A stretch of DNA of 64,000 nt from Lingula anatina (Eukaryota > Animalia > Brachiopoda). Location: the NCBI GenBank assembly GCA_051362555.1, contig CM120640.1, positions 4,836,001 through 4,900,000 of the forward strand, read 5' to 3'. Both the position numbers and the translations under genes were made by a program. Of the stretch, positions 24,201 to 27,200 are shown piece after piece (the stretch's first letter is position 1; every line of letters begins with the position of its first letter). The notes below the pieces were generated by a model. The model was not told where the DNA came from. It made no database searches and saw only the letters and a program-made list of their open reading frames with translations.

Positions 24201-27200
24201 TTACAAAACATCTGCTTACAAATAACTGTTGGTTGATAGTTTGTTGTGAGCTTAAAACTTACAGGATGAACAAAAAAACATGTTGAATAATGACATTGTT
24301 TTGCAGTGAAAGGCCCTTTTTTATGACATGGTATACTTTAGTGATACATTTCTATTGGTGTTCTCTGAGAGATTCTAACATAAGTTGTGCTACCGGGGGT
24401 TATCCCCCTTCTGCTGTTGAGTTAGGATAATTAATTGGCTGTGCCAAGTATGGAGGCTGTTTAGGTTTCTGTCAATCTCTCAAAGTGCACTGATACGGGC
24501 TGTATTTCTATGGACCGAACTGCATGTGAAAAGGGCCTAATGCACCCTTTTGATGTTTGTTAGATATTGCCTATATTTTGCTTTGAATTTTTTTTTTTAT
24601 TGTTTGTGCTTTATTTCCAGTCGGAATGATTCTTGTCTTCCTTGAGCTTACAGGTGTGGTTTATTGACTAATGCATGTTTTTTGTTCTGTTTTGACATGA
24701 TTTGTGTCTTCTTGGTCAAAGGTTGAAGCTGAGGCTACACAGAGAGCTATCACGATAGCCGACCAAGCTAATTGTCCCCTGTATATTGTACATGTCATGA
24801 GTAAAAGTGCAGCTAAAGTTGTATCAAGTGCAAGAAAGAAAGGTATAACTAATTTGCTGCACAGTGTCCTAATGTCTGCTTTAAATGGTGCCAGAATTTA
24901 ATTTGTTTTGAATAATCCTTTCCTTGCCAGTTTCTCTTGATTGTTGGTTGGTACCATAGCCTAAAATTTCTTTACTGCATTTCCAAGAGTATAACTTAGA
25001 AGTAACTTTATAAAGCAATTTAAATATTTTTAATATAATTGTATTGAATTTAATTTTCCAACAAGATTTAACACCCAAATGTGATTAAATGTAATTGTTT
25101 GTAGTGTTTGGCAAAGCTTAAGATAATGAATTGTTTTAATATACAAGCATGTTATAATTATGATTGTTCTTTCATTAGGAAACATAGTGTTTGGAGAGCC
25201 TATTGCAGCCAGTCTTGGCACCGACGGCACCCATTACAATAACAAGTGCTGGCGCCATGCAGCAGGTCATGTGATGGGACCTCCACTTCGCCCTGACCCA
25301 ACCACACCAGGGTACCTCATGGATCTGCTGGCAAAGTAGGTCATCATGACATAATTCTTCTTCTTTTCCATTTGGTATTTTTTAGTAGACCATGGAGCTT
25401 AGAGTAACATTCACTTTGTATTTAGGATAGATATGCATGTAGTGTTGCAACAAAGAATTGTGTAATTGCACAGGCAGTAAAACTACGCAGTGTGAATGTT
25501 ATTGATTAGTGTTTGTAAGAATATCATGACAGGTCCAGGTTACTGCACTTAAATATATATTATGCCATCCAATTGAAATAGCTATTGCTCTTCTCCAATT
25601 GAGTGGTATGCTTAACTGGACCAGTCTGGTTTGCCAGGCCTTAACTATCTCTCACAGGTTCTCCACAAGTTTGCTCCTTGCTGTTTAGTTATATCAGTTA
25701 ATTGTTGTGCAGGGTCTCTTTTAAGCCAGGCTTTTAAGTTGTCAATCAGTCAGAGAGGACCGATTATTTGAAGTTCACTGCTTGATGTGAAAAGGACCTT
25801 TCTTTAATGACAATTTTAACATTCCATGATCATTTTAGTGGAGACCTTCAGGTGACTGGTACAGACAACTGTACCTTCAATGCTGACCAGAAGGCTCTCG
25901 GTGCTGATGACTTCAGGAAGATCCCCAATGGTGTGAACGGAGTGGAGGACAGAATGTCAGTCATTTGGGAGAAAGGAGTCGTAAGCAGAGTTTGTTTGTT
26001 CATGTTGTGGGTTGGCGCCATTTACTGGCTGCCATGTCTCTGCATAGTACACAGTGCACCGCAGTCCTTTAGTTTCCAGTAGAAAATTCTTGTATTTGGT
26101 TGGTTCATTTTGTCAGCTGTAGCAAAGTCTTAAACAGAGATTTAAGATTGGAAAGATGTGTTTGAGGACTGAAAATGTTTGCAAGATACATCTTAAACAC
26201 ATAACTACTGGAATGTTTATGAATGTACAGTTACAAATGTACAAGCCACTGATTCTGCTTTATTTCAGCACACTGGTAAGATGGATCCTTGTCGCTTTGT
26301 TGCTGTTACAAGTACCAATGCTGCCAAAATTTTCAATATTTACCCAAGAAAGGTATTAATTTTTCTCTATTATTGGTATTTCGTTAGAGCTGTTTAATTT
26401 GTTTTAATATTATGCCAGTGAGTGCCATAATTTTTGTCTTCTGTGTAAGTCCCAGTTTTTATTTAGACTATAATATATATAATTCTATAAAGTATAATTC
26501 TTTGTGAAATAAAACTAAGTCAAAAATAAAAATGATGATATGAAGTAGTATATTTCTCATAAAGTTGCCAGCTAATCACTATAAAAACCATAGGTTAGGT
26601 GAAATACATCACATTTAGCAATTAAAACCATATTTTTGAATCCAACATGAAGGATGTTTTTGTTGCTGCCATGTAGGGTAGAATAGCAGTTGGATCTGAT
26701 GCAGACTTAGTCATCTGGAACCCTAATGCCACCAGGGTGATCTCAGCCAAGACGCACCACCAGGCTGTGGACTTCAACATCTTTGAGGGCATGGAGTGTC
26801 ATGGCGTAGCAGAGGTTGTTATAGCCAATGGAAGAATAGTTCTAGAGGATGGACAGGTATGGGAGGTGTCTTTAAAAAAGTGTCATGTTTTTATTGCTGT
26901 TTTAATTGTATAAGTGTCATGTTTTTATTGCTGCTTTAATTGTATAATTTGAGAATTAAGCATTGTGGAGTTTGGATAAGAGAAGAGAAAAAAGATAATT
27001 TGGTGTTATGATTAAATACAAGATACTGAGGCAAGGAATGAAATAAGATTTTATTGTGTTGATTGATATGTTGATCCATACACAAAAAGAAATATTCATG
27101 GTGTCAAGTTGTTATTGTTTTGTTTCTGTTCCAGCTTCATGTTGTTCAGGGCATTGGGCGCTTCATTCCAACTCCACCTAATGCAGAGTTTGTGTATGGA

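Follow-up and report, generated by a model that had tools for sequence, protein, structure and literature searches.

The dihydropyrimidinase/CRMP gene of the brachiopod Lingula anatina contains a true mutually exclusive exon switch, and the intron between the two switch exons, A and B, is predicted to fold into a long, single-copy stem in the pre-mRNA. The gene lies on the plus strand of the window, the whole 64,000-nt stretch of DNA analyzed here, and its protein is identical to Lingula anatina records. We tentatively favor a model in which the stem would serve as a splicing-control spacer resembling FGFR2 IAS2-ISAR while an RBFOX-type protein would repress exon B; that the stem is neutral is nearly as likely.

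Mutually exclusive exons A and B

Switch exon A (23960-24080, plus strand, 121 nt) is CRMP-like and was placed by RNA-seq joints, protein identity and translation, while switch exon B (24722-24842, plus strand, 121 nt) is dihydropyrimidinase-like and was placed by RNA-seq joints, isoforms and structure alignment. They are separated by a 641-nt intron (24081-24721, plus strand), delimited by the RNA-seq exon ends and the sequence, and are flanked on the same strand by two constitutive exons, one upstream that ends in phase 0 (23467-23535, from RNA-seq splice joints) and one downstream that starts in phase 1 (25179-25335, from RNA-seq). The 40-residue product of 23960-24079 shares 100% identity with Lingula anatina dihydropyrimidinase isoform X2. 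Existing annotation already includes both exons, since the ten listed members of the Lingula isoform cluster carry either exon B (9/10) or exon A (1/10).

The two exons differ at a likely metal-binding position. CRMPs are not known to be catalytically active. The VHVMSK motif of exon B, which aligns with human DPYS structure 2vr2, retains its histidine, presumably a metal-binding residue. Exon A has a lysine at this position, like the vertebrate CRMP-type proteins P0047 and P0049. The donor of exon A is the non-consensus GTACCA (24081-24086), and exon B has an AAG acceptor (24719-24721) and a GTATAA donor (24843-24848). Non-consensus donors on both exons and an AAG acceptor on exon B are the expected pattern for regulated exons.

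Splicing was assessed in four of the nine listed RNA-seq runs (X12, X15, X17 and X18), which come from three studies, bear the same species label and have no tissue labels. Joints from the upstream exon to A versus B numbered 0:34 in X12, 11:2 in X15, 4:12 in X17 and 35:7 in X18, and those from A versus B to the downstream exon numbered 0:59, 7:4, 0:4 and 19:13 in the same order. The A:B ratio is heterogeneous among the four runs (P 1.5e-13), and no A-to-B joint or double-skip joint was found in them at the listing threshold of at least three reads. Our results demonstrate that A and B form a true mutually exclusive switch whose ratio flips between samples, which bears out the initial annotation, where they had been called switch exons from sequence. 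Joining A to B or skipping both shifts the frame into an early stop (codon 65 and codon 26 of the joined piece, respectively), so nonsense-mediated decay could hide wrong products.

Other features of this gene and its surroundings were also observed. At least seven alternative first coding exons (window 3891, 8219, 10561, 12425, 15519, 18283 and 18592) were placed by matching the N-terminal peptides of Lingula isoform models, with less certainty for the shortest matches (4 residues). Just 3' of the gene, a long intronless ORF on the plus strand (~30204-31773) resembles, by eye, a protease of the subtilisin type whose tail is rich in Thr and Ser.

A predicted long stem in the switch intron

Within the switch intron, a 5' arm (24311-24374) and a 3' arm (24474-24538) are predicted to pair on the plus strand into a long, imperfect stem of 55 pairs, 10 of which are G.U, with longest unbroken helices of 11-12 bp. 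The arms enclose a 99-nt region (24375-24473) with three small predicted arms at 24375-24425 (including a G5/C5 hairpin at 24395-24408), 24435-24447 and 24450-24472. This hairpin had been noticed in the initial annotation, and the observation is confirmed at the level of a predicted fold: all eight strands of the four named helices (24311-20/24529-38, 24343-48/24501-06, 24353-60/24488-95 and 24366-74/24474-82) lie where they had been placed, with position sums of 48848-48849, and these helices have mean pair probabilities of 0.86-0.99 and are retained in folds of 641 to 1643 nt of context. Two details needed revision. The core spans 228 nt (24311-24538) rather than 24302-24544, the outer TGCA/TGCA helix (24302-05/24541-44) being lost from the best fold in larger context, and the enclosed small hairpins number three rather than two. 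The 5' end of the stem is 230 nt from the exon A donor, and the stem touches neither exon.

Both strands of 24290-24560 were folded against shuffled controls, as had been suggested. The sense strand reached -88.8 kcal/mol (z -3.98) and the opposite strand -64.5 kcal/mol (z -3.21), with 1/200 shuffles equally good in each case. In a composition-corrected 240-nt scan of the window, the stem ranked 15th among 2126 strand-windows. Most of the 14 strand-windows above it are AT microsatellites or belong to a repeat-like element at ~16060-16375; others, near 53765 and 60785, likewise rank higher, and a stretch near 11585 is close behind. Hairpins of similar rank recur about once per 20 kb of the window. 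The stem therefore folds better than expected from shuffling, although stems of this kind are not uncommon in the Lingula genome. Scored as a strand-neutral DNA inverted repeat, only 1/300 shuffles scored as high, but 79/198 real windows of the same size did.

The initial annotation had counted about ten G.U pairs and about one A.C, and had taken this asymmetry as a sign of selection on RNA structure. Strand-neutral alignments of the arms gave 42-46 Watson-Crick, 7-10 G.U and 1-3 A.C pairs. The imbalance exceeds a 1:1 expectation (P 0.02-0.03), but it is at least partly, and probably largely, explained by the G+T-rich composition of the arms themselves (P 0.11-0.18). The energy difference between the strands has a z of -1.8 after composition is taken into account (rank 41/1063). 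Under the same scoring, a comparison hairpin at 60815-60990 has 5 G.U and 5 A.C pairs and the stem 8 and 1. Because of this 5:5 result, the G.U argument for selection on RNA structure survives as a hint only.

Other structured elements were seen in the window. The hairpin at 60815-60990 and another at 11525-11710, within a 5' intron of the dihydropyrimidinase/CRMP gene, are likewise predicted and single-copy. The stretches 16060-16375 and 5427-6249 are inverted repeats, rich in GC and with short repeats inside them, and resemble MITEs or foldback elements. A GC-richer stretch at 53740-54080, single in the window, has a much lower folding energy on the minus strand (-100.9 kcal/mol) than on the plus strand (-77.7 kcal/mol).

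Sequence variation, a tentative splicing model and its alternatives

The divergent X10 lineage provides natural variation in the stem. Among the substitutions listed (40 of 170 rows; the stem-rich stretches 24329-24371 and 24470-24506 may hold more), fixed differences inside the core fall at 24326, 24440, 24507 and 24518. All four are on unpaired bases, with unpaired probabilities of 0.98-1.0 against a mean of 0.33 over 148 positions, the core sites free of stray-contig overlap at which changes could be listed. The bias of the listed changes has a P of 0.0002. It remains at 0.0014 without 24326, which is the window's private allele (X3, X5 and X10 all differ there), and at 0.003 when 24542, where the X10 change breaks the weak outer helix, is included. 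At 24507, a U.U mismatch becomes U.G, a gain of -2.9 kcal/mol. The joint energy effect of six listed changes, including two in the outer helix, is borderline (P 0.048), and the changes in these 40 of 170 rows include no compensatory double change in the stem. Selection on pairing is best supported by this avoidance of paired bases among the listed changes, an argument with serious limits.

At the level of the whole block, the X10 stem is not visibly better conserved than the flanking introns. Across 24198-24580, the two X10 haplotype contigs carry 28 and 40 differences from the window, with 7 of these changes among those listed, and the presence of two separate contigs implies haplotype-specific changes all along the region; the overall divergence of 7-10% compares with 7-13% in flanking intron pieces. 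The density of listed fixed changes is not significantly lower in the core (4/148) than in the upstream intron (7/116, P 0.22). The least changed X10 piece is 24551-24862, with 6 letters and 4 gaps in 312, which holds the predicted branch point, the second UGCAUG and exon B. In run X5, a second haplotype covers 23531-23981, is ~10% divergent in the intron 5' of exon A and has many changes in common with X10, and one near-identical contig spans exon A through exon B (23952-24899); this pattern would point to recombination or introgression, with its border at exon A.

Five TGCATG motifs occur in 20400-28000, two of them in the switch intron. The first UGCAUG, an RBFOX-type motif at 24521-24526 (plus strand), is predicted to lie paired within the 3' arm (mean unpaired probability 0.12). 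The second (24672-24677, plus strand) lies 50 nt before exon B, directly 3' of TGACTAAT (24665-24672, plus strand), which we take to be the branch point of exon B from its match to the consensus, with the branch A ~52 nt before the exon. A UGCAUG beside this predicted branch point is the clearest regulatory feature of the intron. The second motif is 591 nt from the exon A donor when the stem is open and 364 nt when it is closed.

We then propose a tentative model for the switch. In some tissues, an RBFOX-type protein at the second UGCAUG would block the branch point of exon B, and the CRMP-like exon A would be used instead. The closed stem would loop out 228 nt, mask the first UGCAUG and shorten the distance between the second one and the weak exon A donor from 591 to 364 nt, thereby sharpening the switch; because the stem starts 230 nt from this donor, the gain in proximity would be modest. 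Nonsense-mediated decay would clear double-inclusion and double-skip errors. We infer the parts played by RBFOX and by the stem as well as its in vivo folding, with RBFOX binding read from the motif. The initial annotation had proposed that the hairpin controls exon choice, for instance by bringing distal RBFOX sites close to the weak exon A donor, and this is partly supported: the second site does move closer in the predicted fold, but the first is buried and the second abuts the branch point of exon B.

Nearly as likely, the stem is neutral, either left over from a local inverted duplication or folding by chance, and the branch-point UGCAUG, the weak splice sites and nonsense-mediated decay run the switch by themselves. 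Because the A-to-B and double-skip products meet early stops, at codon 65 and codon 26, no structure is needed to explain exclusivity in polyA RNA. Such a stem would also fit the recurrence of similar-rank hairpins about every 20 kb, the many real windows that match its inverted-repeat score, a G.U excess that is not significant against composition, and a least changed X10 piece that is not the stem. However, the listed fixed changes of X10 avoid paired bases (P 0.0002-0.003), and the 60815-60990 hairpin shows the balance of G.U and A.C that neutral decay predicts, whereas the stem does not. If the stem is neutral, only an annotated exon pair and a textbook RBFOX-type site remain.

Selection on pairing, if real, would not reveal what the pairing is for. 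The stem may be kept as a dsRNA substrate, for ADAR (as the initial annotation had also considered), a dsRNA-binding protein or a small-RNA pathway as a precursor, with any effect on splicing being indirect. Its 55-bp, G.U-rich, nearly constant register suits this idea, and such a length suffices for dsRNA-binding proteins. However, its longest uninterrupted helices are 11-12 bp, and it ends in a branched 99-nt region rather than the simple terminal loop of a pre-miRNA. No Rfam 15 family covers the stem, the only two matches (E 3.8-4.2) both lying outside it. We therefore consider a dsRNA substrate quite unlikely. RNA depth over the stem and intron is 0-4 reads in the four runs, few for reading A-to-G changes.

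Slightly less likely again is a kinetic switch, in which 24327-34 would pair with the exon A donor while the 3' arm is still untranscribed and the finished stem would free it. The predicted pairing probability of the donor is 0.16-0.36 for transcripts ending at 24470-24520 and falls to 0 once the 3' arm is complete. However, the 8-bp match to the donor region arises in 23% of shuffled introns, and no docking site common to two selectors was found. The competing pairings put forward in the initial annotation, 24081-88 with 24327-34 and 24508-16 with 24950-59, did not hold up, having equilibrium probabilities of ~1e-5 and 1e-8. A docking-site/selector system was rejected on these same values and the same chance rate.

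Contigs from four of the 11 listed DNA runs were compared at 80% likeness. Depth over the stem equals that of its flanks in X3, X5 and X10, and the stray matches over it (41-43 nt, ~85%) are of the same kind as those over other intron parts; run X11 (organism B) gave short stray matches only. No second copy was found within the 64-kb window (best E 0.15). The flanks beside the arms differ, TGCA being present on both sides but 5 and 2 nt off the arms, in agreement with the earlier remark that no target-site duplication is evident. The stem is thus single-copy, and a MITE or other dispersed inverted-repeat element, whose general shape its 228-nt size and terminal inverted arms resemble and whose like occurs elsewhere in the window, is very improbable because contig depth is flat at 80% likeness, with neither a second window copy nor a target-site duplication.

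Relatives and comparison with known systems

Metagenome contigs were searched with the downstream exon (15 of 64 parts), which yielded at least 27 loci; as the query was this exon and not a cross-species switch-exon profile, distant orthologous loci may be missed. None of the 27 loci has both switch exons, a self-search of seven of them added none, and no stem-like sequence was found in them (best E 1.1). In the Mytilus edulis model P0003, an H-type exon copy is followed by a K-type one in a single reading at residues ~130-225. Going by this one gene model, the mussel would have the duplication seen in Lingula with the exon order apparently reversed, which suggests that the histidine was lost separately in molluscs and brachiopods. 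All nine listed full-length Lineus models are of the H type only, and Mytilus P0003 was the only further K-type exon found among the named invertebrate protein models. Among 150 protein representatives, 107 are K, 31 H, 10 R and 2 unparsed, and none carries two copies in one protein. In the crustacean model P0058 and locus L016:5969-6205, exon borders appear to differ from those of Lingula, which suggests that the arthropod duplicated unit begins partway into the Lingula exon and extends through the one after it. As this arthropod-like unit appears different, the fly-type switch may have arisen separately.

It is tempting to combine these observations into a broader reading, which we regard as quite improbable as a whole: a brachiopod switch from dihydropyrimidinase to CRMP built separately from that of arthropods, with the exon order opposite to that of the mussel, controlled by a folding race and an RBFOX guard. 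The 5' arm would first mask the donor of the CRMP exon; the finished stem would free that donor and bury one RBFOX site, and the second site would guard the branch point of the enzyme exon. If true, exon choice would be set by transcription speed as well as by RBFOX. Independent of the stem, the switch is shown by reads in the brachiopod and suggested in Mytilus, and it bears on the repeated origin of CRMP pseudoenzymes from dihydropyrimidinase.

The literature search found no stem described in this gene, in line with the initial annotation, and no such switch in brachiopods; most subscription papers, including those on fly CRMP, were outside its scope. In Drosophila CRMP, according to the available text, an exon switch between DHP and CRMP forms removes the zinc-binding histidine (PMC7954323; bioRxiv 10.1101/292813). 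As in Lingula, duplicated exons are swapped there so that a single gene yields products of enzyme type and CRMP type that differ at this histidine. In contrast, the exon borders appear different, and the accessible parts of these sources mention no intronic stem (PMC7954323; bioRxiv 10.1101/292813).

For RNA structure, the accessible part of one account describes intronic structures around duplicated mutually exclusive exons in Dscam, 14-3-3zeta, srp and MRP1 (PMC6071210). Unlike docking-site/selector systems, Lingula has no selector pair above chance and a single dominant predicted stem that touches neither exon. RBFOX RNA bridges in ENAH and KIF21A, as far as the available text goes, use pairing to shorten the distance from UGCAUG to the alternative exon (PMC10790352); compared with these, the gain in Lingula is only from 591 to 364 nt, and its exons are mutually exclusive duplicates.

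For the UGCAUG motif, the available portion of PMC2777236 reports that Fox-1 blocks branch points at calcitonin/CGRP exon 4 (-34) and C. elegans egl-15 exon 5B. Lingula similarly has a UGCAUG beside the predicted branch point of the exon to be repressed, at -50 compared with -34 in calcitonin. Unlike these genes, for which that portion of PMC2777236 mentions no long intronic stem, Lingula has a predicted one, and repression in Lingula is suggested by the motif.

The closest parallel is probably FGFR2 IAS2-ISAR (IAS3), in which, as described in the accessible part of PMC2471395, an intron stem between mutually exclusive exons and a downstream GCAUG are associated with cell-type-specific choice. 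The Lingula stem differs in several respects: the gene and sequence are unrelated, it is a contiguous 55-bp imperfect hairpin that closes only 99 nt, one UGCAUG lies inside it, and it is a predicted fold. Like FGFR2, Lingula has a stem in the intron between mutually exclusive exons, a GCAUG 3' of the stem near the second exon, and sample-specific choice. The stem lies in the switch intron, and the (U)GCAUG distal to it, 50 nt before exon B, is nearer to donor A when the predicted stem is closed. If it works, the Lingula stem is thus a candidate member of the FGFR2/RBFOX type. A functional stem would make this 641-nt intron a unit in which RNA structure and RBFOX sites decide whether the gene makes a metabolic enzyme or a form that is likely a neuronal scaffold, and would provide a lophotrochozoan parallel to the FGFR2 stem.
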